A DNA stretch of 32,000 nucleotides from an uncultured Erysipelotrichaceae bacterium (GTDB lineage: Bacteria > Bacillota_I > Bacilli_A > Erysipelotrichales > Erysipelotrichaceae). The stretch spans positions 1,890,001 through 1,922,000 of the forward strand of contig OW818668.1 in the NCBI GenBank assembly GCA_942493105.1. The letters are read 5' to 3'. Shown piece after piece: positions 1 to 22,342 of the stretch. The notes under the pieces are model-generated. The model ran no database searches, was not told where the DNA came from, and worked only from the letters and a program-made list of their open reading frames with translations. The translations under genes were made by a program, and so were the position numbers. How positions within the stretch are numbered: position 1 is the stretch's first letter; each line of letters opens with the position of its first letter.

Positions 1-71
1 AGTGACTTAACTGATCGAACAACACCATTTACGTCTGGATCGTATGTATCCGTAAATATTCCGATTCTCAT
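1..71 (-). CDS. GT4-like glycosyltransferase, first 23 codons only (gene continues left of the window)
   Basis: The reverse complement of 1-71 reads MRIGIFTDTYDPDVNGVVRSVKS from ATG at 71. GGAGGA lies on the minus strand at 78-83. The N-terminal pattern MRIGIFTDTY.P..NGV is typical of GT4 diacylglycerol/lipid glycosyltransferases. The fragment is too short for a firm family call. Confidence 0.5.
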   Translation of the reverse strand, partial: MRIGIFTDTYDPDVNGVVRSVKS

Positions 72-94
72 ACTTGTTCCTCCTGGTTATCAAC

Positions 95-685
95 CTAACT
101 TATCATTGCCACTCTAAACTTGTCGTAAATAATATCGCCTAATTTCATACTAGTTACAAACATAATGAATGAACCTTCATAGACTTTCTTTGTTTTGTTA
201 GTTCTCGCGAAATCGTAGGGTTTTAAAAGCTCAATAGGTTTGTCGAAGCTAATAATCCCAGCATTCTGAAGTATCTCGCCAACGAATTGAGAGCAGAAGT
301 ATGCATTTTTTCGCTTAATTGGATAGTTTACCACAAATCCTGCAAACCCAACAATGTTGTACTTGAAGTTAGCTTTGCTGTATTTAAACCTTCCAACTTC
401 ATCTTCCAATTGCTTGTATTGAAGTTCAGTAACGTCAAGCTTCAGAATAAGACACTTTGTCTTCTCAAAATGATCATAAACTTTAGTTTCAAACTCATTT
501 ACAAATCCCCCAATTACGGGGTTCCTCTTCTTTAGCCTTCCGAAACTGTATATCTCAGTAAAATCATCATTTAGCACCAGGGACACATGATTATAAGGCT
601 CATTTGTGAACAGTCTTATTGATCTTGACAATAAACTTCTAGTATTAGTCAACAAGATGTAAACGACTTTATCATCGTTTTTCAT
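95..685 (-). CDS. Permuted NlpC/P60 papain-like thiol enzyme (YaeF/YiiX peptidase C92 type; His-before-Cys order as in LRAT/PLAAT acyltransferases)
   Basis: The ORF track gives 95..691 from TTG. I prefer ATG at 685 (MKNDDKVVYILL), 2 nt after the DegV stop. The candidate catalytic His in PYNHVSLVL precedes the candidate Cys in AYFCSQFVGEIL. A paralogue with YNHASI / YYCSEFVAEIL lies at 19476..19994. Confidence 0.7.
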   Translation of the reverse strand: MKNDDKVVYILLTNTRSLLSRSIRLFTNEPYNHVSLVLNDDFTEIYSFGRLKKRNPVIGGFVNEFETKVYDHFEKTKCLILKLDVTELQYKQLEDEVGRFKYSKANFKYNIVGFAGFVVNYPIKRKNAYFCSQFVGEILQNAGIISFDKPIELLKPYDFARTNKTKKVYEGSFIMFVTSMKLGDIIYDKFRVAMIS

Positions 686-687
686 TA

Positions 688-1557
688 TCAAATGGACTTT
701 TTTCTAATGTACGAAATCACAAGTGTTCCGGGACCAGAATGACTTCCGATAACTGGGCCAAGATCGTTTAAAAAAATGTTTGAAGATTTCAATCTCATTT
801 TGACGCGGTCACGTAGATCTGATGCCTCAGCGTAACAATCAGCATGATTGATAAAAATTGTCAAATCTAAACTTTCATCAATTTCTTCAACAACAGAATC
901 AAAAAGAAAATTTATCGATTTTTTTCGACCCCTTACTTTTCCGAATGGAACTAATGCCCCAATCTCATTAATTTCAAGTATCGGCTTAACTTCAAGCAAA
1001 TAACCGAAAGCTGCGCTCGTTGCAGAGAGGCGACCGCCTCTTCTTAGATATTCAAGACTGTCAACTGTAAATATCGTCCTGATCTTTTTCTTTTCTTCTT
1101 CCAACAACTCAATCATTTCACCAAATGTTTTACCTTCTTTCAGAAACGATACAGCTTTGTGCACCAATAAACCTTGACCCGAGGAAGCCTGCCTAGAATC
1201 AATAATCGCTATATCCGCATCTGGATAGGATTCCAAAATACTTTTTCTAGCGAGACAAGCACTATTGTATGAACCACTTAAGGCGGATGAAAAACTAATG
1301 TAAACTACATCGGACCCTTCCTTTATGCACTTTAAGAATTCAATTTCAAACACTGATGGAGGAATAAGAGTTGTGGTTGACATCGAGCCAGATCTTAATT
1401 TCTTATAAAACTCCGAGTTTGAAAGTGTTTTAACAAAATCGTCTACATAGTCGGTTCCATCAATGGAATAATGAAAAGGGATAATTTCAATTTGGTTCTC
1501 TTTAAAATACTCAGGGGGAAGGTCGCAATTCGAATCTGTGATTAATTTTAGTTTCAC
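688..1557 (-). CDS. DegV family fatty-acid-binding protein (FakB-like)
   Basis: 289 aa. It shows the DegV hallmarks MKLKLITDSNCDLP, SSALSGSYNSA, IIDSRQASSGQG and LRRGGRLS. AAGGAG lies 8 nt upstream of the GTG start. That GTG overlaps the radical SAM TAG stop by 1 nt (TAGTG). Confidence 0.9.
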   Translation of the reverse strand: MKLKLITDSNCDLPPEYFKENQIEIIPFHYSIDGTDYVDDFVKTLSNSEFYKKLRSGSMSTTTLIPPSVFEIEFLKCIKEGSDVVYISFSSALSGSYNSACLARKSILESYPDADIAIIDSRQASSGQGLLVHKAVSFLKEGKTFGEMIELLEEEKKKIRTIFTVDSLEYLRRGGRLSATSAAFGYLLEVKPILEINEIGALVPFGKVRGRKKSINFLFDSVVEEIDESLDLTIFINHADCYAEASDLRDRVKMRLKSSNIFLNDLGPVIGSHSGPGTLVISYIRKKSI

Positions 1558-2939
1558 TATGTTAACTCCTTGGCTTTCATTTTGTTACGACTTAGGTCAG
1601 ATTTTCTCTTAATTTCATCAGCTACCTCTGCCCAATCAATCGATGCTTTTTTACACTTATCACATAGATCGCTAACATCTTCGGGATGTAGCATCTCTGT
1701 AGACCTGGCACCAGATTGTTTTACCATCATTTCCAGTTTTTCCGGATTATCAAGCAGGGGGCAAGGTCTTAAGTGGTTTTGATTGAATGGTTGATTTCTA
1801 TAATACTGCATAAAAAGCGGTGATTTATATGCCTGAAGTAATGTTTTTGAATTGATATTTGAATCAGAGTAATGAATAAAAGCACACGGTTCAATGTCAC
1901 CGTTAGCATTAATGTGCAGATAGCTTCTTCCTCCGGCTATACAACCCTGGACAAACTCACCATCATTCCAAAAGTCCATTGTAAACAAGGGCTTTTCGTT
2001 TCTAAATCCTCTAATCTTGTCATACATATACGATCTTTGTTCTGGTGAAACCATTAAATTCGGATGCGCATCAACGCCAACGGGCATATATGTGAAGAAC
2101 CAACCAAATTTCGCACCTTTACTGATCATGTCATCAAAATATTCTTCACTCCCAATGTCTTTTGTGTTCATACTTGTATAACAACTCGAAAATCCAAATG
2201 GCAACTTGCTTTCTTTCATTAGTTTCATTGCGGACAAAACTTTTGAATAAGTACCTGCACCTCTTCTAGAATCTGTAGATTCCTCAAAGCCTTCGACACT
2301 GAAAGCTAAGATGAGATTTTTCACTCTTATCATTTCTTTGATAAAAACCTCATCTACCAGGGTACCGTTGGTAAATGCTAAAAAGACACAATCACTATGT
2401 TCCTCGCAAAGTGTGATGATATCCCCTTTACGAGTAAGTGGTTCTCCACCAGAATAAATGTACATGTATGTTCCAAGTTCTTTACCTTGTCTAATGATCG
2501 AATCAAGAGTACTCAAATTCATCGATAGTTGATTACCATAATCTGCAGCCCAGCAACCAATACACTTCAGATTACATGCCGAAGTTGGGTCCATCAGAAT
2601 TGCCCACGGTATGTTGCATGCATGTTCATTTCTATTTGCTTCTTGTCTTTTCCCTCCAATTATGGTCGCATTGATAATTAAGTTTTCAAATAGTTTTTTT
2701 CTAACTTCATCATCGATATCAGTCCAAAGGCTATTAACCAGTTTATACCAGTTACCATCTTTGTTTTTAATGATATCTTTTACAACGGCTAATTGACTCC
2801 CTAAAAATTTTCCTTCATCAATTCGTTCAAGTAGATCCAGAATAATTGGAATATTTTTATCCGGATTTGATTCCACAAGATTTAAGATAGTCTTCATGCT
2901 TAACGACTCAATTTTCTCTTTCATACTTAAATTTGACAT
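1557..2939 (-). CDS. Radical SAM enzyme with a Cys-rich C-terminal (SPASM/twitch-like) extension, substrate unknown
   Basis: A CX3CX2C motif occurs in SACNLKCIGCW. Later Cys motifs are GCIAGGRSYLHINANGDIEPCAF, RPCPLLDNP and LCDKCKK. The ORF track starts at TTG 3056, but that extension reads through the TetR stop and a palindromic operator. ATG at 2939 (MSNLSMKEK) follows GGAGG at short spacing (3 nt), so the start is probable rather than certain. Confidence 0.85.
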   Translation of the reverse strand: MSNLSMKEKIESLSMKTILNLVESNPDKNIPIILDLLERIDEGKFLGSQLAVVKDIIKNKDGNWYKLVNSLWTDIDDEVRKKLFENLIINATIIGGKRQEANRNEHACNIPWAILMDPTSACNLKCIGCWAADYGNQLSMNLSTLDSIIRQGKELGTYMYIYSGGEPLTRKGDIITLCEEHSDCVFLAFTNGTLVDEVFIKEMIRVKNLILAFSVEGFEESTDSRRGAGTYSKVLSAMKLMKESKLPFGFSSCYTSMNTKDIGSEEYFDDMISKGAKFGWFFTYMPVGVDAHPNLMVSPEQRSYMYDKIRGFRNEKPLFTMDFWNDGEFVQGCIAGGRSYLHINANGDIEPCAFIHYSDSNINSKTLLQAYKSPLFMQYYRNQPFNQNHLRPCPLLDNPEKLEMMVKQSGARSTEMLHPEDVSDLCDKCKKASIDWAEVADEIKRKSDLSRNKMKAKELT

Positions 2940-2953
2940 ATTCCTCCATTTCG

Positions 2954-3007
2954 TCTCACGACATGTGAGACCAGTATTGATAAATTCGGTCGTCCGACCG
3001 AATTGTA
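2954..3007 (-). promoter_or_regulatory. Candidate operator/promoter of the radical SAM-DegV operon: perfect 22-bp palindrome, a -10-like hexamer and a 5' UTR hairpin
   Basis: AATTCGGTCG-TC-CGACCGAATT at 2983-3004 has 10-bp arms with perfect dyad symmetry. A minus-strand TACAAT (3002-3007) abuts it. A hairpin TCTCAC-gacat-GTGAGA (2954-2970) lies 6 nt upstream of the SD. The whole region sits in the 113-nt gap between the TetR stop and the radical SAM start. Confidence 0.6.
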
Positions 3008-3052
3008 TCCCAAATAAGTTCACGAACTCGATCCTTCGAATACTCACTGGTG

Positions 3053-3634
3053 TCAACTGGTTGTATAGATTACTTCAACCAAATTCATTGCTTTGTATAA
3101 GTCCTTATCATCCGGATTCAAGAGAATCTGAATTGAGGTTCCAAAAAGTGAACCAAAAATCGCCTTTGCTAGAGTCTTAGCCGAACTGTAGCCTAAACTG
3201 GCTTGTGTAACTTGATCAGCTAGAATGTACTTTTCGATCAAACTTGATAGATCATCAAATAGATCGTTTAGCAGATTCCTGAAAGTATTTGACCACATAG
3301 ACATATTTGTCAGATCAAACAAAAGTCGAAATAGGTTCGGATTGGTCATTAGCATATTTTGAAAGTATTTCACCAAATTACTCATTTTCTCTTGAGAGCT
3401 CGTCCCAACTTTCAAGATCTCTTCAATTTCCACCATATATTGACGAGCAGTCATTCTAACTACTTCCATCAAAAGACCTTCTTTATTTTTATAGTAATAA
3501 TTCAATTGGCTCAATACAACCCCTGCTTCATCAGCAATTTCCCTAAGTGAAACATTTGCATACCCTCTTTGGGAAATATGTTTAAAGGCTGCATTGATAA
3601 TTAATTGAGATTGATGATCTTGTTTTGCACGCAT
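3053..3634 (-). CDS. TetR/AcrR family transcriptional regulator
   Basis: 193 aa. The N-terminal HTH block is AAFKHISQRGYANVSLREIADEAGVVLSQLNYYYKNKEGLL. GGAGG lies upstream of the ATG. A paralogue lies at 9356..9934, with 30 of 32 residues identical across the HTH block. Confidence 0.9.
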   Translation of the reverse strand: MRAKQDHQSQLIINAAFKHISQRGYANVSLREIADEAGVVLSQLNYYYKNKEGLLMEVVRMTARQYMVEIEEILKVGTSSQEKMSNLVKYFQNMLMTNPNLFRLLFDLTNMSMWSNTFRNLLNDLFDDLSSLIEKYILADQVTQASLGYSSAKTLAKAIFGSLFGTSIQILLNPDDKDLYKAMNLVEVIYTTS

Positions 3635-3646
3635 GAATGCCTCCGT

Positions 3647-3706
3647 TTAATACGGTTGTCCGAATTAATACACTCTTAGAATACGTCTAGTCAACGCGTT
3701 TGTCAA
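3647..3706 (-). promoter_or_regulatory. Sigma-70-type promoter plus palindromic operator upstream of the TetR gene
   Basis: On the minus strand: TTGACA (3701-3706), a 17-nt spacer, TATTCT (3678-3683), then the palindrome TTAATACGG-TTGT-CCGAATTAA (3647-3668) between the predicted transcription start site (TSS) and the SD. The same layout is found at 9948-10006. Confidence 0.6.
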
Positions 3707-3754
3707 TAGACTTTCGAAATCCTACAAAAATTGCTCATATGCAAGATTTGAAAC

Positions 3755-4612
3755 CTATCTAGTAGCCGCTATGATTTGACTAAGTTGTGTTCCGGCTTCA
3801 AGATAGGCTTGCTCTACAATCTTCTTTCCTTTACCAGCATCAAACGTATAATACCTAGATACATCAATGTTGATATTATAGTCCGATAGTAGACGATCAC
3901 TTTCCTGATTTGCACTGGTCATGATATCAATGATTCGAAATGCCACATTTAAAAGTTTATTTGACGCTTTATATCTTTGCTTGCCATCCATGGTCACTGA
4001 TAGAATTTTATTCGCTTTCATTGTCCTAAGCAAAGTGACGGGCAGATTCATTTTTACACCCCCATCCACAAGTTGCATGCTTTCGTATTTCTTCGTACTG
4101 AAGACAATCGGAAACGAACAAGACGCTCGTACCGCTTCCGTGACAGCTGAATCCGAAATGATAATCTTATCGGGTTGATCTTTGAAAACTTCAGGAGTGT
4201 TTGTAAACACAACTAACTTCCCGGTTATCAAGTCCACTGATGTTATCGAAACTGGCTTTTTCAGATCATCTAGATTTCTTACACTGAATTTGTCAAACTG
4301 TTCTTGTATCATATCTTCGAATTTGTCAGCATCAACGAGCCCATTCATTTTTCTTTTTGACATCGGCAATACCCTAAGGTTTGGCTTTAGAAAAATCTGT
4401 TTCTCTAGAAACCCCTTCTCAAGTTCATACATTGCCTTTTCAAGTTGACTATGATTTGCACCTGCCGCGATCAAACAAGCAATGATTGAGCCCATACTCG
4501 TACCACTTAATGATTCAATTTCGAAGTTGTTTTCATCTAGAATCCTGTATACGCCTATCTGTGCATAAGCTCTTATTCCACCGCCGGACAAAGCCAGACT
4601 GATCTTTCTCAT
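3755..4612 (-). CDS. Patatin-like phospholipase
   Basis: 285 aa. It has the glycine-rich loop SGGGIRAY, the nucleophile elbow GTSMGS (GxSxG) and the catalytic Asp motif VDGGV. GAGGTG lies upstream of the ATG. Confidence 0.9.
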   Translation of the reverse strand: MRKISLALSGGGIRAYAQIGVYRILDENNFEIESLSGTSMGSIIACLIAAGANHSQLEKAMYELEKGFLEKQIFLKPNLRVLPMSKRKMNGLVDADKFEDMIQEQFDKFSVRNLDDLKKPVSITSVDLITGKLVVFTNTPEVFKDQPDKIIISDSAVTEAVRASCSFPIVFSTKKYESMQLVDGGVKMNLPVTLLRTMKANKILSVTMDGKQRYKASNKLLNVAFRIIDIMTSANQESDRLLSDYNINIDVSRYYTFDAGKGKKIVEQAYLEAGTQLSQIIAATR

Positions 4613-5306
4613 TTTGTCTCACCTCAATTTTATCTTACATTAGTTCTCCCTAACACTACAGTTAATATTCGAACATTGGATCAACTACGCTAAACAAGAT
4701 TAATTACTTAGTAATGACTAAACAAAGAACGAGAAGAATAGGAGAGTTATACGAAGGGATAGAAGAAATAAAAATCTAGTTAAAGCAGAAACGAAAACCA
4801 CAAATCGAAAGCATTCAGGAATACGATCTGAGTTCCGCGGTGTTTGAGCGCTAGAAAGCGCTAGATGAAATACAGCAAGAACTTCAAAGAGAAAGATAAC
4901 TGGTCGCCAAAAGAGAATGCACTAGTAATATTGTACAAGGAAGTATGGCAATTTAAATGGAGAATATTATATTGAAGTAGGCGGTGCCAATCAATCGGTT
5001 CTAAATGCTTACTTCTCGATAACTTGGTCTAATAAACAAGCATAAATTGATCAAAAAGAACTCGTTCAACTAATAAGGTTTGTGCCACTAAATCAATTAC
5101 AAATCGGATTAATTGCAAAGCATGTTGGTTCTGTGTGTTGTGGATTCGTTTATACCTGATTGTTCTGGGTTAGGTTGAATATAATCAAACACATTGTGAA
5201 TTATAAATAATTTGTCGCCTACTAACTAGTCATCATTAGTGATGAAGGGTTGAGCAGTAACTGCAAGTGAGCTAATCCATTTGAATTAGGTTAAACTAGA
5301 TTAGTT

Positions 5307-7697
5307 CTACTCACTTCTCAAAGCTTCAACAGCATCCTTTCTAGATGCGATTTTTGCTGGAATGTGACCGCCAATGACAGTTAGAATAGTGCTGATGACA
5401 ACAAGCATAAATGCATGCAGTATTTGAAGATTAGCTACTCCTTTTAACCCAGTTAAGTCATAAATAATCGTATTGATTGGTATTGTCAATAGCCATGCTA
5501 TCCCAATTCCAAGGAGACCTGAAAATATGCCTAAAATAAAGGTTTCAGCATTAAACACACGCGTAATATCTTTTTTCCTTGCCCCTAATGCTCGCAGTAC
5601 TCCAATTTCCTTGGTACGTTCCAACACTGAAGTATAGGTGATAATACCGATCATAATCAAACTGACAACAAGTGAAATGGAAGCAAACGCAATCAAAATA
5701 ATAGTTATAGCATCCATAATGCCGCCCGTCAGTTCTGTCATTGTTCCTGCTAAATCAGAATATATTATTTGATCTTCTATTTCTTTATCCTTGTTATATG
5801 CATCTAAATAAGCAAGAACCGCAACCTTGTCATCGAAGTTGTCCGGATAAACCATGACCATAAAGGGTATGGCATTTCCACCAAGATACGATAGAAAATT
5901 CGCCTTAGTTTCTTTGTCCATATCTTCCAACGACATGATGTTTTTGTCACTCAAAAGCTGTGCTTTGACAATATCTGAATTCACCGCATCATCAATAACA
6001 ATTTGTGTCAACTCATCACTATAAGCAATACCAGAACCAAGAATTCCTATCCGCACATCTTGCTTTTGTCGTATTACCCCGACAATTTTCACTGTTATAC
6101 TTTTATCTGAAGCGTACATTGCTGCGTAATCTCGACCAGGCAGATATGATCCAATCTCAGTTTTAACATAATAATCATTGTTGGTAATGATTTTAAACTC
6201 CGTACCTAAAATATCATTTAGTTTGATGCTCTTAATGTTTTCGGTGTCAAATCCTAACCCTTTTAGAATATTGAAATCAATTCTGTTCTTGGCATCTATA
6301 ACAAGAACTAAATCAGTTGCGCTTTTCGGATATTCGCCTGCGAGTATTTCATAATTTTTTAGAAGGTAGGATTCATCACCCTCTTTTAACTGTTTGGGAT
6401 ACGAGGAGAGCCCTATAGAACTCATGCTTTGCAAATTCGCCATATTAGTGATGCTAGAGATGCTCATGCCTTCACCCATCGTGGACATAATATTCGAAAT
6501 CATCACAGGTTTAATTGCATTATTTACTTCGCGAAGTAGATTCATGCTGACAATACGGGCATAACCAATATTGTTACATACTTCAGGATCAATCTTGTTC
6601 AGGTAATCAATAAATTCATCCGTGAATTTATTCTTGTGTGCAAAACTAGTTTTTGTCGGATCATAAAGGAATACTTCATCAGAATCAGCATATTCCTCAG
6701 TACCTGTTATTTTGTCCTTTATTATATCCTGCATGCTGGCTATATTTTCTGCATCTAGTTGAATGGATGATTGAGATATGAGGATTGGGAACTCAGACAA
6801 AGCATCACTTTGGAAAGTGTCTATCTGCGTTTGAAACCCTGTTGAAAGGCTGAGGATAACAGCTATTCCTATTATCCCGATACTAGAGGCAAGTGCTGTT
6901 AAAAAGGTTCTTCCTTTTTTTGTCCTTAGGTTGGTAAACGAAAGCTTCAATGCCATTAAAAATTTCATGCTGGTTTTCTTGAGAATAAAGTTATCCGGTT
7001 TCAATCTTTCCTGATGGGGATGACTATCGGAAATTATTTTACCATCCTGGAATCGAATAATTCTGTCTGCATATTTATCGGCAATCTCAGGATTATGTGT
7101 GACCACGATAACCAAACGATCCTTTGATACTTCCTTTATTAAATCCATAATCTGAATGCTGGTGACAGTGTCCAATGCGCCTGTAGGTTCATCACAAAGC
7201 AGGATTTCAGGGTTGTTAGCCAGCGCTCTGGCAATGGCAACGCGTTGCATTTGTCCACCAGATAACTGGTTCGGCTTCTTATGCAAGTGATCTTTAAGCC
7301 CGACTTGCTCTAATACCTCAAGCGTTCTCTTGCGTCTTTCTGAAGCAGATACTCCGCTCAGCGTCATGCCAAGCTCAACATTGGCAATGATGCTCAGGTG
7401 CGTAATCAGGTTATAGTTTTGAAACACAAAACCTATCGAATTATTACGATATGCATCCCAATCTTGATCTTGGAAATCGGAAGTCTTCTTTCCTTTAATG
7501 GTTAACTCACCCGAATCATAATGATCAAGTCCGCCAATAATATTCAAGCATGTAGTTTTACCTGAACCGCTCGTACCAAGAATTGCCACAAATTCTTTTT
7601 CGCGAAACGCAACACTGATATCGTCCAGTGCCCTCGTTTCAATCCCCCCTACATGATAGGTCTTCTTTATGTTTTTAAATTCAAGCATCTTTTTCAC
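5307..7697 (-). CDS. Fused ABC transporter: N-terminal ATPase plus MacB/FtsX-type permease with a large extracytoplasmic domain
   Basis: 796 aa. It has Walker [10 protein letters not shown], signature LSGGQMQR and Walker [12 protein letters not shown] helix and a roughly 350-aa soluble domain follow, then a C-terminal FtsX-like module ([22 protein letters not shown]). The start is GTG at 7697 or ATG at 7688. Confidence 0.9.
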
Positions 7698-7710
7698 TCT
7701 TTCTTTAATG

Positions 7711-7743
7711 AATTCGGTCTAAGCAGTTGAAACTTCCGAATAT
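7711..7743. promoter_or_regulatory. Inverted AATTCGG / CCGAAT half-sites just upstream of the ABC transporter start
   Basis: AATTCGGTCT (7711-7720) matches the 2983-2992 operator arm AATTCGGTCG at 9 of 10 positions. The partner half, TTCCGAATAT, lies at 7734-7743. The spacing is much wider than in the 22-bp operators, so the function is uncertain. Confidence 0.3.
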
Positions 7744-8014
7744 GTTTTATTTTTGCGTTTAGGATAAATTCTACATATCACGCACGCGCGTTTCTTCTAG
7801 CATCGAAGGGTAGCCAAGAATATTGTTGATTTTGCATCATGTACCATACTGACTGTCCAGCTGGTCATTTTAATCTGCATTAACTGTATCTGTTCTGAAC
7901 TGCACAAATTTGACCCTTTCTTCTTAGTTATACCAAAATTTACTAGTGACTGTGAAAAAAGTGTCTTTATCACTTTATGAAAATTATGAACTCATAATCA
8001 CTTTGATTTTCTTT

Positions 8015-8884
8015 TCAGTCTTCTTGATTTCCTAAAAAAGCAATCGCTAAAGACCCGGGTCCGGTATGAGATCCAATTATCGGTCCCATATAATTAATAA
8101 AAACTTCGTTTGCTTTATTACTACTAGTAATCATGGTCTTTAAGAATTCCGCTTCTTCTAAGCAATCTGCATGATGAATGAAAACTGTTTGCAATTCCTG
8201 TTCAGATGCTAACTCATTAAATTTGTCGAGAAGTGTTCTGATAGATTTTTTTCTCCCTCTAACTTTATCCGCAACGACGATTTTTCCTTCACGATCCAAT
8301 TTAAGAATTGGTTTGATTTCCAGTAAATATCCGAGGGCTGCGTTAGTGGCAGAGATTCTCCCACCTCGTTTTAAGTGTTCTAGACTATCTACGATAAACC
8401 AAGCATTTACCCTCTTTCTCAATATGCTCAAACTTTCAATTAGTTCTTCCTTTGTTTTTCCCTTTTTGAGCATTTCAATTGCCTGATATAAGATTAACCC
8501 TTGGCTAGCGGAAGCACTCCGAGTATCAAAGACAGTAATATCAGCATTGCTATTTTTCGCCAATACTGAATTCTTAGCAATCTGTGCACAATTAAATGTT
8601 TCACTTAGAGCTGATGAAAACCCAATATAGATAATGGCGTATCCTGCGGCTATATACTCATCAAATAGGTTTTCGAAAATATATGGATTGATTTGTGCGG
8701 TGGTTGACATTTCACCTTCGCGAAGCTTGTTGTAAAAATCTTTATAACTTATCCCTTTTCCAAAATTATCTTCATACTCAATTCCACTTAATTGGAAGTA
8801 GAATGGCACAACATGCACATTATTTTCTATTAAATATTCCTGTGATAGTTCACAATTTGAATCTGTTATAATTTTTGTTTTCAT
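8015..8884 (-). CDS. DegV family fatty-acid-binding protein, second copy
   Basis: 289 aa, the same length as the copy at 688..1557 and colinear with it (MKTKIITDSNCEL, FSSALSETFNCA, FDTRSASASQG, LKRGGRISAT). AAGGAGAA lies upstream of the ATG. Confidence 0.9.
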   Translation of the reverse strand: MKTKIITDSNCELSQEYLIENNVHVVPFYFQLSGIEYEDNFGKGISYKDFYNKLREGEMSTTAQINPYIFENLFDEYIAAGYAIIYIGFSSALSETFNCAQIAKNSVLAKNSNADITVFDTRSASASQGLILYQAIEMLKKGKTKEELIESLSILRKRVNAWFIVDSLEHLKRGGRISATNAALGYLLEIKPILKLDREGKIVVADKVRGRKKSIRTLLDKFNELASEQELQTVFIHHADCLEEAEFLKTMITSSNKANEVFINYMGPIIGSHTGPGSLAIAFLGNQED

Positions 8885-8889
8885 CTGTT

Positions 8890-9340
8890 CTCCTTTTTCG
8901 ATGTTTTTTTATCAATTTGATTTTCATACTGAATTCATCTTCTATTATTTTTGCCACCCGACTTTTGTGGCGCGCCTGCACTTATTACATAAATAAGGAA
9001 TATATTCTTGTTGTAGTTTCAGTGGGCTTTGCGCCAATCGTCAGGATCACCTGTCCCAACATTTCGGGATTATCAATGCAGGCTTGAATTCTAAATACGA
9101 CTAAGATAAAGGCGTTCCATATGAGTCAATCCATAATTTCGATCAAGTATCGAAATCCGTATAATGAATGATTTATCAAGGCTCAATATCACCCTTTGCA
9201 TTATGATGTTGGATACTACTACCGCCAGTTATGCAGCCATAAACATATTTCCCTTATTCGATTAATTCCTTATGAAGGTGGGTTTCATTTTACGAACTTT
9301 ACATATTCGTTCGAGTTTTAGCATCTATACAACTAACCAC
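8890..9340 (-). pseudogene. 3'-terminal remnant of a second radical SAM gene (paralogue of 1557..2939)
   Basis: Minus-strand translation gives three matching stretches, read across shifting frames with stops. NETHLHKELIE*GKYVYGCITGGSSIQHHNAKGDIEP* corresponds to NEKPLFTMDFWNDGEFVQGCIAGGRSYLHINANGDIEP in the intact copy. CIDNPEMLGQVILTIGAKPTE corresponds to CPLLDNPEKLEMMVKQSGARSTE. YLCNKCRRATKVGW corresponds to DLCDKCKKASIDW. Only about 0.45 kb remains where 1.38 kb is needed, and the CX3CX2C region is gone. Confidence 0.8.
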
Positions 9341-9355
9341 ATTTTTCTCTTCTCA

Positions 9356-9934
9356 CTAAAGCATGGTTCCGATTACATCTAGTGCCTTCGGTAATTCTTT
9401 TTCATTTGGGTTCAATAGTATTTGTATTGATGTCCCGAAGAGTGCTCCAAATATCATTCTGGCAATAGTGTGTGATGTATAACTAGCCAGTTTGTAATCC
9501 GGGGTTGCGATATTAAGAATATTATCTTCAATCAATTGGGCTAGACCATCAAACAACTCATTAAGTAGCTTCGCAAAATTATCTGACCACATAGCCATAC
9601 TTGTCAAATCAAACAGCAATTTGAATAGATTTTTGTTATCTCGTAAAGTATCTTGAAAATAATCAATGAGATTACTCATCTTCTCGTTAGTGGTTGATCC
9701 AATTTTCAGGATTCCATTAACTTCATCCATATACTTTTTGATGGTCATCCGGATTACTTCAATAAGTAACCCTTCCTTGTTGATATAATAGTAATTCAAT
9801 TGACTAAGTACGACTCCAGCATCATCCGCTATTTCTCTTAATGATACATTCGCATATCCTTTCTTTGAGATGTAGTCGAATGCAGAATTCAGTATTCTTT
9901 GCGACTGATGAACTTCTTGTTTGATCTGAAGCAT
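9356..9934 (-). CDS. TetR/AcrR family transcriptional regulator, second copy
   Basis: 192 aa, colinear with 3053..3634 (GYANVSLREIADDAGVVLSQLNYYYINKEGLL; GALFGTSIQILLNPNEKEL). GGAGGG lies upstream of the ATG. Confidence 0.9.
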   Translation of the reverse strand: MLQIKQEVHQSQRILNSAFDYISKKGYANVSLREIADDAGVVLSQLNYYYINKEGLLIEVIRMTIKKYMDEVNGILKIGSTTNEKMSNLIDYFQDTLRDNKNLFKLLFDLTSMAMWSDNFAKLLNELFDGLAQLIEDNILNIATPDYKLASYTSHTIARMIFGALFGTSIQILLNPNEKELPKALDVIGTML

Positions 9935-9947
9935 TTACGCCCTCCAA

Positions 9948-10006
9948 TTAAATCGGACAACCGTTTTAATTGGATACAGTTTACTACCTGAATGATTTAT
10001 TGTCAA
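9948..10006 (-). promoter_or_regulatory. Promoter plus palindromic operator upstream of TetR2
   Basis: On the minus strand: TTGACA (10001-10006), a 17-nt spacer, TAAACT (9978-9983), then the palindrome TTAAATCGG-ACAA-CCGTTTTAA (9948-9969). The geometry is identical to 3647-3706. Confidence 0.6.
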
Positions 10007-10989
10007 TCATTTTGATATTTTTGAAAAGTTTCATGAAAACCGGATCATCCTATGATTAGTTGGATCGCTATGTGGCTCATCGACTCTTTTTTTCATTTGC
10101 ATTTCTGATATATCTCTCCGCTCTCCTTAACCCGAAACTCGTTGCACATCCTTGCAACAGGAAACTCTGAACGATTCTCCACATAAATTAAACTTCATCA
10201 CTAGTTTTACATAAATGAATGACTAACTCTTCGTAATTATCGAATTCCTTTTTCCTTTTGAGTGTCAAAGTGAGGTCAATTCTATTTTAGATTTAGTCTC
10301 CTTGTGTCCTACTTTCTCAAGGACTAATTCGCAGTTGACATACCCTTCTACGTTCACATCCTCTTTAATGACAATATTCTGATTCTTTTCAAATCTTTAG
10401 CAACAATTTTTACTAATTTTCTACTTTCTAAGATGCCTTTCCCAGTTCGGTACCTTAACTCTAGGAATATTTACTGTTGTTCATTATAAACTTGTTGATT
10501 ATTTCACCAGAAAACTCTAATACCATGATTTGACAAAAGTCGACCTATCCCAACTCACATAAAGTCAAAATACGGATCCTAATTCGATTTTACTAATTTT
10601 TTGTCGTGAATAATCGCAGAGAATTCTCAACAAAATCTGATGGTTTTTAACTGAAACATGATGAATCAAACGATTAGGGCTGGGACAGTCGGTCTCTATG
10701 ATATATGGAATCGAAGCAGATGGTCTAGTCTAAAGATCTAGATCATCTGAGTTTTGAGGAGATCATTTACTTCAGCAACCTAGTTACTGCGAAAGGGCAC
10801 TCTGAAAGCTTAGTGATCAATATTTCAAGTTGGAAGAAGAAATAATTTAGAAATATTCTAATACAAAAAGCACATAATCATCAAAAAGCGATTTAGTTGA
10901 GATGATTCTACGAAAATTCCGAATAAGGTTGTAGTTCTTATAAAAACTATTCTAGTACTACGACATCTATTGGTATTTTAAAAAACCAC

Positions 10990-11303
10990 AAGAACCTACT
11001 TCCTTAAAACGGATACGATAAATAAATAAGTGACATGTGTGAGAGCTGACTGTCGATATTTAGTCGGAGTAAGCTCTTTTAGTTATTCTTAAAGTCTATG
11101 CTGATTGTAAAAGATTACGTAACCGGACACAAGTTGTTTGACGAAATTTCTCGATGTTAATCGAATAATTTGAGCGATTCGCACTTCAGAAGTGAAAACC
11201 AGGATTCAATCGGGACGTTATCGACACAGCTGCCTTTGTAGGAGACACCGTGTTTGACCTGACGCCTTTTAAGGAGTTTCCTGTACGCGATTGAAGTGAA
11301 CTG
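10990..11303 (-). pseudogene. C-terminal fragment of an IS3-family (rve/DDE) transposase, cut off by the neighbouring IS
   Basis: Minus-strand translation gives QFTSIAYRKLLKRRQVKHGVSYKGSCVDNVPIESWFSLLKCE. It then continues frameshifted with stops as FYNQHRL*E*LKELTPTKYRQSALT. An IS-end-like sequence (CTTCCTTAAAACGGATACGATAAA) lies near 10998-11021. The left boundary is approximate. Confidence 0.65.
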
Positions 11304-11332
11304 TGGAAAGGCAACAGTAAACTAGACAAAAT

Positions 11333-12180
11333 TTATAAGGGGGGGGGTTTGTAATCAACCGGACTCTTATAGTCCAGGGTTGAATGGATCCGTTTCGTAT
11401 TGAACCAAGTCATATAGCGGTCCAATTCGACCTCAAGCTGACTTAAGCTCATAAACCTTCTAGGATAAACAAACTCTTTCTTGATTAACTTATAGGTAGC
11501 CTCAGCGACTGCGATATCGTAAGGACAGCCTTTCATACTTAAGGAACGCTTGATTTCGAAGGTCTCTAGAATCTTATCAATCTTTTGATTTTTGAATTCT
11601 AAGCCCCGATCGGTATGAAAGAGTTCGATTTGAGATAACGGTCCTTTGACCTTCGCGAAAGCTCGAATAACCAGCTCAGCGTCTTTGTGTCTTTTACAGC
11701 TGTACCTGATAATCTCTAGGTTATACAGGTCGATCAGAAAACAAATATAGTTCCAATCATTCCCGACTCTGACGTAGGTCAGATCACTGACAATGCGTTT
11801 TATCGGAGTCTGACTGGGGAAGTCACGATTGAGCACATTAGGAATAAAGTCTTCATTACACTTATCCTTATGAACATTAAATTGAGCGATCGTATGGACC
11901 GAAACCAATCCCAATTCGCTTATTAATCAGTTGATTCTGCGCCGTGAGACCCTTTGGCCCAATTTCTTCAGTTCTTTCTTGATTTTCCTTGAACTATACA
12001 CTTTCTCGTTTTCATCGAAGATCGTTTGGATCATGACTTTCGGGTGGATATCTGATTTATCTTTACTCTTCAGCTTTGATTTCGTATAGACACTGCTTCG
12101 ATTAACTTTTAATATTCTGCATAGCGCTGAGATCGGATAGCGTTCCGCATTCTGGCGAATGACTCTTATTATCGTCCAAA
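11333..12180 (-). pseudogene. IS3-family transposase OrfB with one in-frame TGA
   Basis: The frame is continuous: TIIRVIRQNAERYPISALCRILKVNRSSVY...RRIN*LISELGLVSVHT...DLTYVRV...FHTDRGLEF...SMKGCPYD. The TGA at 11927-11929 sits where IS3 relatives usually have Arg (CGA). A G9 run at 11339-11347 encodes the C-terminal PPP. Confidence 0.75.
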
Positions 12181-12462
12181 GATCAACGCTGCCTGCTTTA
12201 AAATATCGTTCTCCATCCTCAATTGTGAATTCTCCTTACGCAGTTGAATTAACTCATTCTCTTCCGGTGTTCGGTTATCTTTCTCTTTAAAGGATCCGCT
12301 GCGTTCACTCTGCATCACCCAGCGATCAAACGCCGTTGAGCTCAGACTATATTCCCGGATGATGTCGATCCGAGGCTTTCCGCTCTGCCTAAGCTGAACC
12401 ATCTGACGTTTAAACTCTTCTGTATAGCTCCTTCTTTCTCTTCGCATTTCCATCACGTTCAC
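12169..12462 (-). CDS. IS3-family transposase OrfA (HTH/leucine-zipper part)
   Basis: 97 aa: RRSYTEEFKRQMVQLRQSGKPRIDIIREYSLSSTAFDRWV followed by a coiled-coil ELIQLRKENSQLRMENDILKQA. This is typical of IS3 OrfA. Confidence 0.85.
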   Translation of the reverse strand: MNVMEMRRERRSYTEEFKRQMVQLRQSGKPRIDIIREYSLSSTAFDRWVMQSERSGSFKEKDNRTPEENELIQLRKENSQLRMENDILKQAALIFGR

Positions 12463-12604
12463 TTTCTCTCTTTCTTAGTTTAATGTCCCCTAAGAAATCT
12501 GTCTAGTTTAGTGTAGCCGATCCAGTAACAAGTCGGAGGTACTCACACTTCTTTATACACTCAAGCTTCCACAAATAAAAAGCCATCCTTTTTGTACTGA
12601 CCCC

Positions 12605-13453
12605 CTAAAAGTGGACAGTAGAAAAAAGCTCTGGCTCTAGAGATGAAATTCGTTTCATCTCTTTTTCTTTGAATTCTAGTGGAGTCAAGTATTCCAAAGC
12701 TTTTTGTCGACGCTTCGTGTTGTATCTCACCTTGAAACGATGAAGTGCTTCAATAAGTTCAATATCTGTTTTAATGTGTAAGGTATCGTTATGAATCACT
12801 TCAGATTTTAAGATACTGTGCAGACTTTCATTCGGTAAATTATCCGTCGGTTTGCCTTTTCGTGACATACTTTGAATAAAATTATACTCCACAAGTTTCT
12901 CCTGAAAGAGCCGATTTGTATATTGAGATCCGTGGTCGGAGTGTATGAAAGTCCCGTATAGAATGGCCTTATCGTGAACTTGATTAAGTGTTTTAAGGAC
13001 AAATTCAATGGTTGGGTGATACATGATTTCATACGCTTCAATCATTTTTGTGTACATATCTTTGATTGAAGAAAAATATATTTTCTTACCATGAATATGA
13101 AACTCTGTGATATCGGTATACAGTTTATCGAAAGGAACTGAACACAGGTTATTACCTCGGATAATATTGTCTTTTGGGTATTCCTCAGGGTGACTATTCG
13201 TTTTATCTTTACGACGTTTTACGTGCGAAAGAAGACCGCAATCACGCATGATTCTTAAACAGTGCTTATGGTTGACTGTCAATTCGTTTTCGATTTTCAG
13301 GTACTTAGATACTGTCTTGGCTCCTAAAGTGAAATCATTCGCCAGCTGAAGCCGTTTAATCAGAAAAGCAATTCCCAGATATTCATTACTGATTTGATCA
13401 CATCGCTTAGCCCCGCGTAATAACCAGCTTGACTTACGTGGCAGAATCGGCAC
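12605..13453 (-). CDS. IS3-family transposase OrfB (DDE/rve domain); the N-terminal region is probably frameshifted
   Basis: It contains YTDITEF, IHSDHGSQYT and SMSRKGKPTDNLPNESLHSILKSE. Upstream, the expected N-terminus (LYSVTRMCRFCHVSQAGYYAG) is in a different frame, and the -1 frame after the slippery site hits a stop. The element is therefore likely decayed. Confidence 0.65.
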   Translation of the reverse strand: MPILPRKSSWLLRGAKRCDQISNEYLGIAFLIKRLQLANDFTLGAKTVSKYLKIENELTVNHKHCLRIMRDCGLLSHVKRRKDKTNSHPEEYPKDNIIRGNNLCSVPFDKLYTDITEFHIHGKKIYFSSIKDMYTKMIEAYEIMYHPTIEFVLKTLNQVHDKAILYGTFIHSDHGSQYTNRLFQEKLVEYNFIQSMSRKGKPTDNLPNESLHSILKSEVIHNDTLHIKTDIELIEALHRFKVRYNTKRRQKALEYLTPLEFKEKEMKRISSLEPELFSTVHF

Positions 13454-13531
13454 ATCCTGGTCACTGAGTATAGTGATCTTAAATCGTGAATAGCCAGGAA
13501 GATTATTTCTTTATCAACTCCTCTTTCAAGG

Positions 13532-13810
13532 TCAATACTTTTTTAACAGATCACGTTCCATCTTAACCTGTTTCAGTTCTTCAGTAAGGGTCTCATATTT
13601 CTTCTTTGGGTGACCTCTACTTTTTCCTCCTCGGGTTTCTCGAAACAATTCCACCTCTCCACCGGAGCGATATTTACGAATCCATCGTCTTACAACCGTG
13701 TGATCCGCGCCTAGTTCTTCAGCCAGTCTTTCTGGTGCTTCTCCATTCTCAAAATATCGCTTCACAATACTGAGCTTCAATTCATTTGTGTATTTCTGGT
13801 GCTTTCCCAT
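13532..13810 (-). CDS. IS3-family transposase OrfA
   Basis: 92 aa: YTNELKLSIVKRYFENGEAPERLAEELGADHTVVRRWIRKYRSGG followed by a coiled coil ending in KMERDLLKKY. Confidence 0.85.
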   Translation of the reverse strand: MGKHQKYTNELKLSIVKRYFENGEAPERLAEELGADHTVVRRWIRKYRSGGEVELFRETRGGKSRGHPKKKYETLTEELKQVKMERDLLKKY

Positions 13811-14001
13811 TAGAAAACCCCCTTTAAGTTCAGTATAAGAGTTTTTTCTAAACTGTCTACTTATTGGGGGGCAGTATATTTTCAGATGGCTTCATCGACT
13901 TTTGTCAGAAGTGAAATGACTAAATAGCCCAATATCATGTCCTTTTGAAGTAGCAAAATTTGTCAATAAAAAAGGGTGATTTTCAATCTACCCTTAATTG
14001 A

Positions 14002-14559
14002 TTACTTACGCAATGGTTTTAATGCATTGGTCCAAGGGATCAGTTGATCCAACACAGAACCTAGGATGTCATTGTGCATCGCATGTGGCTTAAATTCGCT
14101 AAAATTTACAAAGTCAGTGAACAAGGATAATTGAACACCTTTTTGCACGTCCGCCATTTGAAGTTCCGCAACGATGACACGTAAGTTTTCAACCGCACGA
14201 ACACCCATTGCGCTACCGTAACTTACAAAGCCAACCGCTTTGTTATTCCATTCAACATTTAAGAAATCGATGGCATTCTTTAAAGCGCCGCCCACAGCAT
14301 GGTTGTATTCAGGGGTCACAAAGATAAAGCCATCCATTTCGGCAATTTTCTTAGACCATCTCTTCGTATGTTCATGGGTATAGTTTTGATAGATTGCAGG
14401 ATAAGGTTCATCCAGAAGTGGCAATTTGTAGTCTACCAAATCAATGAGTTCAAACTCAGCATCCGTCCGTTTTGAAGCAAGTTCAAGAGCCCACTTCGCA
14501 ACCGCTTCACCGTTACGTCCAGGACGTGTACTACCGATAATAATTCCAATTTTAGTCAT
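14002..14559 (-). CDS. NADPH-dependent FMN reductase family flavoprotein
   Basis: The ORF track starts at 14640. I prefer ATG at 14559 (MTKIGIIIGSTRPGRNG), which is preceded by GAGGAGAA. The motifs GSTRPGRNG and TPEYNHAVGGALKNAIDFL are typical of the PF03358-type FMN reductases. Confidence 0.85.
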   Translation of the reverse strand: MTKIGIIIGSTRPGRNGEAVAKWALELASKRTDAEFELIDLVDYKLPLLDEPYPAIYQNYTHEHTKRWSKKIAEMDGFIFVTPEYNHAVGGALKNAIDFLNVEWNNKAVGFVSYGSAMGVRAVENLRVIVAELQMADVQKGVQLSLFTDFVNFSEFKPHAMHNDILGSVLDQLIPWTNALKPLRK

Positions 14560-15178
14560 CTTAATTTCTCCTCGTTTATTGATTGATATTTTGATATCAC
14601 AAACGTTATTATATAGATAAATATCTGTATATCCATTCATGTGCTCATTTAAATATTATTTTCGTAAACGACGAGGATTAATACAAGGTCCCTCAATTGA
14701 ATATCATTTGGTTGCTAATTAAGCCATCCTTCTCAGAATGGAATGATGGTCTTATCACTTACCTGCATATCAAAAAAAACGGCATCTATATGTTTCATTC
14801 CTATTCTGATAAATTGGAAGATAATTTCCTTCACAATTAAAATCGCCCACATAAAACCATGTCATTTCATTATGATATAATCAAAATATTTTATACTGTC
14901 ATAGAATTTATCTAAATTCTCTACAATTAGTAATGCGCTTATTCAGTAATGAACTATAGTGATCTTCTGGTGAGTGCTACTACAATTGAAAGGGCTATAC
15001 ATTATCGAATTGAGCCCAGAATGCAATATTAATAGCTGTTAAATTATCTCTTGGATCGTTCATCCACAAATTGGTCAATATCAGTTCATATTTTCATCAT
15101 AGTGGCAAAGTAAGGTTTGGCAATACAGATTCCCCCACCTGCAAATGTCTGTACTAAAGTAAAACTGAGGAGAACAGT

Positions 15179-15670
15179 ATGTATAAGAACCGGATTGATA
15201 AATTATCTGAAAAAGCACCGTCTGAGATACTAAAACTTGTTATCAATTCGATGACTTATTCTGTATTCTTCAAGGGACTGGATGGCAAATACTTGGGATG
15301 CAATTTGGAATATGAAAAGTTAATTGGCAAAAATGAAGCGGAAATTATCGGGAAAACTGCCTATGATCTCAATGTGGTTGAGTCGGCTGATGAGTTTACA
15401 TCCAGTGATCTGGATGTCATAAATACTGGGCAGCCTATTAAAATTGAAATTTGATTCGCAAAAGCAGACGAGTCTAGGGCTTTGTATGAAAACCAAAAAT
15501 CTCCCTTTGCAATGATCGCGGCAACATCATTGGCATTATCGGGGTATTTCAAGAAATCACCAGACAGAAAGAAATGGAAGAAGCCCTAAGGATCAGTGAA
15601 GAAAAATATCGCATCATAACCGATAATTCCCAGGACGTCATCTGGGTACAAAACTTCAAATCATCGAAAT
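15179..15670 (+). pseudogene. Broken 5' part of a multi-PAS sensor gene, truncated by an IS remnant
   Basis: ORF 15179..15454 is PAS-like (YSVFFKGLDGKYLGCNLEYEKLIGKNEAEIIGKTAYDL) and preceded by GAGGAG. After its TGA the sense continues in another frame: NDRGNIIGIIGVFQEITRQKEMEEALRISEEKYRIITDNSQDVIWVQ. That reads as the end of one PAS domain, a linker and the start of the next. No output domain follows. Confidence 0.65.
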
Positions 15671-15674
15671 TCAC

Positions 15675-16559: not shown

Positions 16560-16577
16560 TTCTTATGGTTTTTTTGT

Positions 16578-17429: not shown

Positions 17430-17659
17430 GAGTTCTCCTATAAGACTCTGTTGAAGAAATTCAACAGCAGATGTCCACACTTGTTCAATAGATTGACAAC
17501 CAACACTTCGTATGCTCACATATTTTTAGCCATCAAAAGCTTTTAAAAATCCTTTTTCTTATCATTCAGGAACTTTAAAATCGTGATCAAAGTCGCGCAT
17601 TTAGAATGCATAGGATAACATTTGAAATCAATTTTATGGTTCTGACAATCACCAGAATA

Positions 17660-17882
17660 TTATTGACCTGTCCCATAAATTGTTTCAAAACTGAGTAGAG
17701 TTTCTATGCTCAGTTTAATTGTCAAAGGAGCCGGTGCTTTATACTGTAGTGAACTGTGTGGCCTAACGGAATTATAATACAAAATCCACACTTTCGTAAG
17801 AGCTTTAACTTCAGTTAGCGAAGTAAATAATTCAATGTTGAGAAATTCATCTTCCAGTTTACTGGTCTGTTTCGACTTTTTG
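17660..17882 (-). pseudogene. C-terminal fragment of another rve-type DDE transposase
   Basis: Minus-strand translation gives SKLEDEFLNIELFTSLTEVKALTKVWILYYNSVRPHSSLQYKAPAPL...*, the conserved C-terminal tail of IS3/IS481-type transposases. The upstream part is replaced by the end of IS copy D at 17883. Confidence 0.65.
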
Positions 17883-19236: not shown

Positions 19237-19264
19237 AACTGTCCACTTTTAGGGTGTCAGCATA
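19237..19264. repeat. Solo terminal inverted repeat of the copy-B IS type
   Basis: The reverse complement, TATGCTGACACCCTAAAAGTGGACAGTT, compares with TGTACTGACCCCCTAAAAGTGGACAGTA at 12593-12620. They differ at 4 of 28 positions. I could read no transposase frame next to it. Confidence 0.6.
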
Positions 19265-22212: not shown

Positions 22213-22342
22213 TATTCTCACTTGAAAGTCAGCCCAAGATGGAGCGGATGATGAGATTTAATTTTTTCTTTTCTGGACTGCAGTGGATTTATAAGAGAGC
22301 CCTCTGAGGAGCATCATATGGGTACAACAGAGGAAAAACAGA

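Follow-up and report, generated by a model that had tools for sequence, protein, structure and literature searches.

What does an enzyme of the radical S-adenosylmethionine (SAM) class do when its gene runs directly into that of a fatty-acid-binding protein? The question is raised by one end of a 32,000-nucleotide (nt) stretch of DNA from an uncultured Erysipelotrichaceae bacterium (contig OW818668.1; hereafter the window, whose positions are used throughout). The six genes of window 1-4612 share the minus strand. In order of transcription they encode a patatin-like phospholipase, a TetR-family regulator, the radical SAM protein, a DegV protein, a weakly matching C92 (YiiX-like) protein and the start of a family 4 glycosyltransferase (GT4). 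The original prediction had read the radical SAM, DegV and C92-like genes as a TetR-controlled operon, flanked by the patatin gene and the GT4 start, for a candidate uncharacterised lipid-modification system, in which the radical SAM enzyme acts on an acyl chain presented by DegV. Gene calls and a base-by-base check confirmed the six co-directional genes.

Our preferred reading, to which we give a probability slightly above one half (about 0.55), is that a low-GC, Erysipelotrichales-like anaerobe has here a gene neighbourhood for lipid remodelling. At its core would be a TetR-repressed unit of radical SAM, degV, C92 and GT4 genes, with the radical SAM enzyme a member of the Mss (membrane-spanning lipid synthase) homologue family. 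The original prediction pointed in the right direction, towards radical chemistry on lipid tails under TetR control, and went wrong in calling the enzyme uncharacterised and in making DegV the substrate carrier.

List cross-reference places the radical SAM protein among the Mss homologues

The radical SAM gene (1557..2939, minus strand) encodes 460 amino acids (aa) from an ATG at 2939 that is preceded by a GGAGG ribosome-binding site. The translation from this ATG is identical to database protein P0140 (NCBI, Logan); a longer reading from a TTG at 3056 received no support from homologues and was rejected. The family is large and slowly evolving, with 61-76% identity across Bacillota classes. 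Sequence search returned at least 8,000 relatives, the best named of which, among the matches listed, belonged to Clostridia and Tissierellia (64-70% identity), and an exhaustive search at E<=1e-30 gave 742 clusters at the 50%-identity level. Among 36 close members, about one third of the residues lie in invariant columns. The family is confined to anaerobes and takes in Spirochaetia, candidate phyla and Actinomycetota, as described for Mss.

Two Mss proteins have been tested by experiment. WP_129545148.1 of Thermoanaerobacter ethanolicus and Tmari_0825 of Thermotoga maritima yielded long-chain diacids upon anaerobic expression in E. coli, according to the available text of Sahonero-Canavesi et al. 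2022 (PMC13159169). The same text describes the diacids as arising via tail-to-tail coupling of fatty acids, and reports homologues, defined by e<=1e-50, throughout anaerobic bacteria. A 2026 paper from the discoverers' group tabulates the Bacillota homologues by accession (BLASTP against Mss, e<=1e-30, >30% identity; PMC13274423). We translated family members from named genomes, looked up their exact sequences and matched the resulting accessions to the supplementary tables of that paper.

The window protein was 63.3% identical to WP_249279789.1, the sole Mss homologue listed for Guopingia tenuis, and 65.9% identical to WP_023387328.1, one of the two listed for Youngiibacter fragilis. It was also ~64% identical to the listed proteins WP_177190735.1, WP_227208121.1, WP_172611259.1 and MBS6339375.1 (Eubacterium callanderi/limosum), which fall in the same 90% cluster as the E. 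callanderi protein of our family. Because proteins with 63-66% identity over the full length stand on the discoverers' list by exact accession, we count the window protein as an Mss homologue. On these comparisons it belongs to the discoverers' Mss-homologue family, placed there via listed homologues rather than the tested enzymes. Searches seeded with P0192, a thermophile-like distant member, and with the Anaerocolumna protein P0353 returned no Thermotoga, Thermoanaerobacter or Butyrivibrio entries, and the clusters of ten distant representatives led only to metagenome-assembled genomes. The original label 'uncharacterised' was not borne out, two proteins of this radical SAM family having been tested by experiment as early as 2022 (PMC13159169, available text). 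Membership of the family also makes radical chemistry on unactivated acyl-chain carbons, as first proposed, the most likely activity.

Like Mss, the window clade consists of ~450-aa radical SAM proteins of anaerobes, found in Bacillota, Spirochaetes, candidate phyla and some archaea, and set in lipid-gene neighbourhoods; it differs in being a tight sub-group whose named members are known from sequence. The neighbourhoods were surveyed at 80 loci in species-representative genomes (59-86% identity in the radical SAM protein), which were searched with the window proteins, and whose neighbouring genes were scanned against Pfam. Immediately downstream of the radical SAM gene (n=73), the survey recorded DegV seven times, Glycos_transf_1 seven times, SAM synthetase five times, VTT/DedA four times and MGDG_synth/GT28 twice. 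In Paradesulfitobacterium, PlsY, FabH and FabK genes lie beside it. The recurrence of DegV, glycolipid synthases of the GT4 and GT28 types, PlsY, FabH/FabK and DedA/VTT supports the lipid context proposed at the outset.

Conserved cysteines and predicted fold

The radical SAM domain (PF04055, E=1.6e-14) has the features of the superfamily core: a cluster motif, C122-x3-C126-x2-C129, and a SAM-binding G164-G165-E166, each retained by no fewer than 92% of 72 diverse family representatives. Beyond this triad, the conserved cysteines across the same representatives were C333, C352 and C393. The three additional cysteine motifs noted originally are therefore three conserved single residues, and do not make up the full seven-cysteine SPASM motif; the Pfam SPASM match was below threshold at 20.7 bits. 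The AlphaFold (AF2) model, with a predicted local distance difference test score (pLDDT) of 85.4, shows an N-terminal domain of five helices (residues 6-106), the radical SAM barrel and a C-terminal extension.

Could the protein instead be a SPASM/twitch maturase of ribosomally synthesized and post-translationally modified peptides (RiPPs) or of anaerobic sulfatases, or a heme or cofactor enzyme of the AhbD/NirJ type, with the lipid genes as unrelated neighbours? The solved structures that it resembles most would suggest so. A Foldseek search of the Protein Data Bank (PDB) with the model found SuiB, SkfB and anSME (E=6e-15 to 1e-11), together with viperin cores, and a profile search of the same database found anSME at 8.8e-12. 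These are generic likenesses without functional discrimination: template-modelling (TM) scores were ~0.5 and identities 16-20%. The best NCBIfam scores were likewise to heme-type enzymes, NirJ2 (E=1e-19) and AhbD (E=1.5e-17), at 71 and 64 bits against cutoffs of 500 for both, and no curated NCBIfam family scored above its cutoff. Like SuiB, SkfB, anSME and PqqE, the window protein carries a cysteine-bearing C-terminal extension after a partial TIM barrel, but it has a 100-residue N-terminal helical domain in place of a RiPP recognition element, its three extra cysteines are not the seven of SPASM, and it lacks a peptide substrate context. No sulfatase, heme-pathway or peptide-export family was among the frequent immediate or second-upstream neighbour Pfams at the 80 loci (the M3 peptidase family occurred in 2/73), and 61-76% identity across classes is atypical of RiPP maturases. 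We therefore regard a maturase or heme enzyme as very improbable, in agreement with the original view that this is not a peptide-maturase context.

Comparison with the individual families gave the same picture. Scores were 36.8 bits against 225 for HpnH, the adenosyl-hopene transferase (TIGR03470), and 40.9 against 349 for the anaerobic sulfatase maturases (TIGR03942); the RiPP SPASM maturases DynA, StsB, PapB, GggB and others were far below cutoff among the models listed. The archaeal Tes/GDGT-MAS (PDB 7TOL/7TOM) is a radical SAM enzyme proposed to perform the same sp3-sp3 tail-to-tail coupling with auxiliary clusters (PMC13459092). It differs from the window protein in length and domain make-up. 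The profile search matched 7TOL at a marginal E=0.065 across ~75 residues (116-189) of the radical SAM core, and the enzyme was absent from the top 50 Foldseek matches. Thus, among the families proposed for comparison, Tes, HpnH, the sulfatase maturases and the RiPP maturases were set aside, and the protein was placed with the Mss homologues by list cross-reference.

DegV is an enriched but facultative neighbour

The degV gene (688..1557, minus strand, 289 aa) encodes a confident full-length member of the DegV family, which in this respect resembles the FakB subunits of fatty acid kinases. PF02645 matched at E=1.4e-79 (267.8 bits against a cutoff of 27) and TIGR00762 at 278.7 bits against 99.7, covering residues 2-285. 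The protein differs from the FakB subunits in scoring below the cutoff of the FakB1 equivalog (NF038249, 149.4 bits against 350), and the window has no fakA.

The junction with the radical SAM gene is as tight as first described, with a 1-nt overlap in which the radical SAM stop codon TAG (1559..1557) and the DegV start codon GTG have the G at 1557 in common. Elsewhere, DegV lay within 2.5 kb of the radical SAM gene in 13/78 informative loci and was directly adjacent in 10. Only three hits fell in the larger far flanks, so that near and far differ at p=4.6e-4 in a binomial test uncorrected for phylogeny. The lineages concerned (Youngiibacter, Christensenellales, Tissierellaceae, Fusibacter and Thermacetogenium) are unrelated, and orientations vary between them. 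The association is real but loose, that is, enriched and facultative.

These observations could be taken to mean that the two genes form a dedicated system, in which DegV presents a fatty acid, the radical SAM enzyme carries out an undescribed modification, and the patatin and C92 proteins exchange the product into membrane lipid. The overlapping codons and the enrichment favour it, the downstream, upstream and convergent arrangements in different lineages suggest repeated recruitment, and no link between a radical SAM enzyme and DegV was found in the literature searched. However, 83% of the loci have no DegV nearby. The linked DegV proteins are 26-51% identical to that of the window while the radical SAM proteins are 61-76% identical, which argues against a co-evolving partner. 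In the closest relative, HGW-Firmicutes-10 (locus L007, radical SAM 86% identical), DegV has been reduced to a 68-aa remnant although the radical SAM, C92 and GT4 genes are retained. At UBA6182 (L008) the TetR and DegV that flank the radical SAM gene are closer to a second pair in the window, TetR2 and DegV2 (80% and 79%), than to the pair that flanks the window gene.

The chemistry would also be awkward. In FakB structures the end of the acyl tail is buried in the protein, and it is thus the wrong end for tail chemistry that would be presented.

Finally, the available text on the tested Mss enzymes (PMC13159169), which yielded diacids in E. coli, describes no co-expression of DegV. A dedicated system of radical SAM enzyme and DegV is on this evidence rather improbable, and presentation of the acyl chain by DegV was not borne out.

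A conserved operator-like repeat points to control by TetR

The tetR gene (3053..3634, minus strand) encodes a 193-aa regulator (PF00440, E=2.8e-12). Between it and the radical SAM gene, at 2983..3004, lies an inverted repeat, AATTCGGTCG-GA-CGACCGAATT, with perfect arms of 10+10 nt around a non-palindromic 2-nt centre. It had been described as a perfect 22-bp palindrome before the radical SAM gene; position and arms are as stated, but with the centre included 20/22 positions match. The repeat is not due to chance, because 0/100 shuffled sequences contained a match, even with 3 mismatches allowed. It sits 44 nt upstream of the radical SAM ATG, where it overlaps a -10-like hexamer, TACAAT.

HGW-Firmicutes-10 and UBA6182 have the repeat in the same place, with 1 and 4 mismatches, respectively. 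Sites of a related form, AATTnGGnCG-NN-CGnCCnAATT, stand before tetR genes of this subfamily at five other places (L005, L007, L008, L035 and L053). The window itself has no second copy of the motif, even with 3 mismatches. By eye, weak palindromes were seen just upstream of the ribosome-binding sites of both tetR genes in the window, at ~3647-3668 (AATTCGG-ACAA-CCGTATT) and ~9953-9975 (AAAACGG-TTGT-CCGATTT), and these have a CGG/CCG half-site core in common with the operator before the radical SAM gene.

TetR is also a frequent companion of the radical SAM gene. Orthologues stand directly upstream in L005, L007, L008 and L017. Over the whole survey, a TetR regulator was the immediate upstream neighbour in 9/71 loci and the second upstream neighbour in 22-24/58, so that up to ~45% of loci have one within one or two genes upstream. 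Together with the conserved repeat, this supports the predicted TetR control.

The nearest NCBIfam model for both window TetR proteins is FadR (NF053878), at 57-59 bits (59.5 bits for the TetR beside the radical SAM gene) against a cutoff of 200. They thus resemble the TetR fatty-acid regulators (Bacillus FadR/YsiA, FabR) in their nearest match and in a palindromic operator that adjoins lipid genes, and differ in scoring well short of the equivalog cutoff; at many loci of the wider radical SAM clade the TetR is of another type, TetR_C_8.

The outer genes are linked in close relatives only

Downstream of degV, the spacing seen at first reading was likewise correct base by base. The DegV stop codon TGA (690..688) is followed after 2 nt by an ATG at 685, and the stop codon TAG (97..95) of the C92-like gene by 23 nt with an AGGAGGA and an ATG at 71. 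Overlapping or near-overlapping junctions between the radical SAM, DegV, C92 and GT4 genes indicate co-transcription of these four. A shared direction does not make one operon of all six genes: at least three transcription units are likely because of a promoter-like site before tetR and the operator repeat on the -10-like hexamer before the radical SAM gene. The site before tetR (3678..3706, minus strand, TTGACA-17-TATTCT) is sigma-70-like with 10/12 consensus matches; promoter-like sites in the region did not in total exceed those in shuffled sequence, hence it is a candidate. The layout is most likely one of three units: patatin; tetR; and the TetR-repressed unit of radical SAM, degV, C92 and GT4 genes.

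The three outer products are of unequal certainty. The patatin gene (3755..4612, minus strand, 285 aa) matched PF01734 at E=4.8e-31 (108.9 bits against 27.7) and has a GGGIR motif, a GTSMG (the GxSxG first noted) and a DGG, as expected of a patatin-like phospholipase. The C92-like protein (95..685, minus strand, 196 aa) is a weak match to permuted papain-fold proteins, below the cutoff of PF05708 (E=1.6e-3; 19 bits against 27), with YaeF (NF008552) at E=4.6e-4, or 3.1e-5 for the HGW-Firmicutes-10 orthologue, which is 71% identical and in the same position. The permuted order of the NlpC/P60-type protein reported before, His before Cys, was found at His35 (YNHVSL) and Cys134 (YFCSQFV). A phmmer search of this protein against the PDB gave no match, and its single-sequence AF2 model was unusable (pLDDT 45).

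Of the GT4 gene (1..71, minus strand) the window edge leaves 23 aa, which align with the N-terminal end of NF049988 (E=1.4e-4). The syntenic full-length gene in HGW-Firmicutes-10 (L007:9108-10271) has this model, an alpha-monoglucosyl-diacylglycerol synthase equivalog, as its best match (E=2.6e-79; 267 bits, below the cutoff of 400), and by this similarity the window GT4 is probably a relative of glucosyl-diacylglycerol synthases.

Patatin, C92 and GT4 accompany the radical SAM gene only in the two closest relatives, L007 and L008. The patatin gene is conserved upstream of tetR and the radical SAM gene only in L007 (76% identity) and L002/L008 (60%). The survey thus found DegV enriched and TetR frequent, and confined the linkage of patatin, C92 and GT4 to close relatives; the coherent six-gene system of the original prediction was not borne out. 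At 16578-17519 (minus strand) the window encodes a further patatin-like phospholipase, which carries DUF6363 at its C-terminus, and a gene of this Patatin+DUF6363 type is the immediate upstream neighbour of the radical SAM gene in one of the 80 loci. In Guopingia tenuis (L059) a patatin-like tblastn match lies immediately upstream of it.

This restricted linkage raises the question of whether anything beyond tetR and the radical SAM gene forms a functional unit. The rest might have assembled by chance out of widespread genes of lipid metabolism, in a rearranging region rich in insertion sequences (IS), with DegV nearby through the many paralogues of small-genome Bacillota. Two TetR-DegV modules and two patatin genes within the same 17 kb, the IS3 and IS256 fragments and integrase that fill 10-27 kb, and the transposases that flank the UBA6182 cluster are all in keeping with this. 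The linkage of patatin, C92 and GT4 does not extend beyond L007 and L008, and the flanking of the UBA6182 radical SAM gene by orthologues of TetR2 and DegV2 implies reshuffling. The overlapping and near-overlapping junctions of the four core genes speak against it, as do the order of radical SAM gene, DegV remnant, C92 and GT4 retained in L007 and the enrichment of DegV beside the radical SAM gene in distant lineages. We consider chance assembly of the whole to be unlikely, though by no means negligible. The outer genes may plausibly have come together in part by accident, since the neighbouring stretch at 10-27 kb is crowded with IS fragments and has an integrase.

With its patatin gene and mobile surroundings, the cluster could also be read as an anti-phage or conflict system in which patatin is the effector and the radical SAM enzyme is of the viperin type. 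The patatin matches phospholipase effector models of the cyclic-oligonucleotide-based anti-phage signalling system (CBASS; PADLOC E=3e-19, and 57 bits to the NCBIfam CBASS lipase), and the radical SAM core matches pVip models at E=5e-10. However, these matches are at the level of domains and below cutoff (57 bits against 200 for the CBASS lipase), cyclase, sensor and other defence components are absent, and TetR, DegV and C92 have no PADLOC match. The radical SAM family is, moreover, chromosomal and conserved like a housekeeping gene. A defence role is so remote as to be hardly credible.

Relatives of the radical SAM gene and the wider surroundings

At about 32/80 loci, the window not among them, a divergently transcribed gene encodes a ~345-aa paralogue of the radical SAM protein (for example L010:6721-7767, minus strand). 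It is 19-24% identical to the radical SAM protein (BLASTP E=2e-17 against the window enzyme), is without the CxxxCxxC motif and the C-terminal cysteine region, matches no Pfam or NCBIfam model, and is usually flanked by a TetR_N+TetR_C_8 regulator. Possibly, this protein serves as a partner subunit that is catalytically dead.

Copies of the radical SAM gene with 59-62% identity occur in archaea, in Methanocorpusculum and a Methanomicrobiales metagenome-assembled genome (L060, on the complete chromosome OZ245878.1, L062, L074, L079 and L086). A gene for an ABC1/UbiB-type kinase adjoins four of these five. The copies look like an inter-domain transfer into the methanogen lineage; the name Methanocorpusculum had no match in the available text of the 2022 Mss paper. 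A plasmid search found distant homologues only: two on enterobacterial plasmids at 36-39% and one on a Methanosphaera plasmid at 33%, with uninformative neighbours. The enterobacterial copies, annotated 'radical SAM protein', lie on the IncF plasmids pEA5_1 of E. albertii (L087) and pFF1023_1 of K. pneumoniae (L088), which is an unexpected host range for a family of anaerobe lipid enzymes.

Upstream of the patatin gene in the window lies the paralogous module mentioned above (5307..9934, minus strand), in which TetR2 (9934..9356) and DegV2 (8884..8015) are followed by a MacB-type fused ABC exporter (7697..5307). Identity is 60% between the two TetR proteins and 48-50% between the two DegV proteins. 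The ~700 nt between the exporter and the patatin gene (4613-5306) are without an open reading frame (ORF). In UBA6182 the counterpart of this gap is occupied by two ORFs without annotation (148 and 239 aa), and the window may carry their remnants.

Beyond this module, from 10000 to 27200, the window is riddled with IS elements. Fragments of the IS3 family lie at 11333-11914, 12169-13453, 13532-13810, 17926-18432 and 22343-23559, and a split IS256/Mutator transposase at 20355-21566. ORF-free gaps at 9934-11333, 14640-16578 and 18432-19476 resemble decayed genes. A tyrosine integrase (25706-26827) stands beside tRNA-Leu(caa) (27080-27164); a search for the att sites of an island bounded by this tRNA found no repeat of the tRNA end within the window.

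A model for the locus and its significance

How might the core unit work? We infer the following scheme from the family placement and the gene neighbourhood. The FadR-like TetR is likely to cover the -10 region by binding to the 10-2-10 repeat, and a lipid-derived ligand would free the operator. The radical SAM enzyme would cleave SAM reductively at its CxxxCxxC cluster, and the 5'-deoxyadenosyl radical would take a hydrogen from a fatty-acyl tail, at its omega or omega-1 carbon. With the aid of an auxiliary cluster on C333, C352 and C393, this tail would then form a C-C bond with a second one, in line with what has been postulated for Mss after the example of Tes (PMC13459092), and the expected product would be a bipolar lipid of the diabolic or iso-diabolic-acid type. 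DegV (FakB-type), patatin, C92 and GT4 would be accessory neighbours that supply, recycle or decorate acyl lipids: acyl chains would be released and then recaptured by way of the fatty-acid kinase route, and glycolipid head groups would be added. The radical SAM enzyme would not depend on them as obligatory partners.

Several points weigh against this scheme. The placement goes through listed homologues rather than alignment with WP_129545148.1 or Tmari_0825. The published list is defined by a BLAST threshold, and some genomes have two or three entries (Y. fragilis has two; the second paralogues are WP_023383182.1 in Y. fragilis and WP_013381689.1 in E. callanderi), so the window clade could be a paralogue of the tested Mss enzymes. 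In Clostridia, the presence of Mss homologues is not always matched by detected membrane-spanning lipids, as the discoverers themselves state in the available text. Solved structures match the protein only as a generic SPASM/twitch enzyme, with GDGT-MAS a marginal hit. The lipid product, the TetR ligand and the binding of TetR are all predictions. Finally, the cluster adjoins an IS-rich stretch, so that some of the gene adjacency may be recent and accidental.

Should the clade be a paralogue, a different account would follow. The Bacillota clade, conserved at 59% identity or more across classes and transferred into Methanocorpusculum, might then not make diabolic acids and might instead modify fatty acids or glycerolipids by another radical reaction, as yet undescribed, with DegV/FakB-type proteins as recurrent acyl-handling partners and the dead radical SAM paralogue in that role elsewhere. 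We see this as a minor possibility, which, if true, would give the first functional pairing of a radical SAM enzyme with FakB.

On the preferred reading as an Mss-family neighbourhood, the findings are not surprising enough on their own to change the general picture: the radical SAM protein is a further member of a described family. The family nonetheless matters. Mss-type enzymes make the membrane-spanning lipids of bacteria, which are presumed precursors of the branched glycerol dialkyl glycerol tetraethers (GDGTs) used as palaeoclimate proxies and are also relevant to the 'lipid divide' that separates bacteria from archaea. To their putative producers the window adds an Erysipelotrichales-like lineage. 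It also adds context beyond the available text of the Mss papers; in that of 2022 no description of a neighbourhood of TetR, DegV or pseudo-radical SAM genes was found under operon, synteny or neighbour wording. The TetR operator, the facultative but enriched link to DegV and the putatively dead paralogue found beside the gene elsewhere offer testable handles on the regulation of Mss and the delivery of its substrate.

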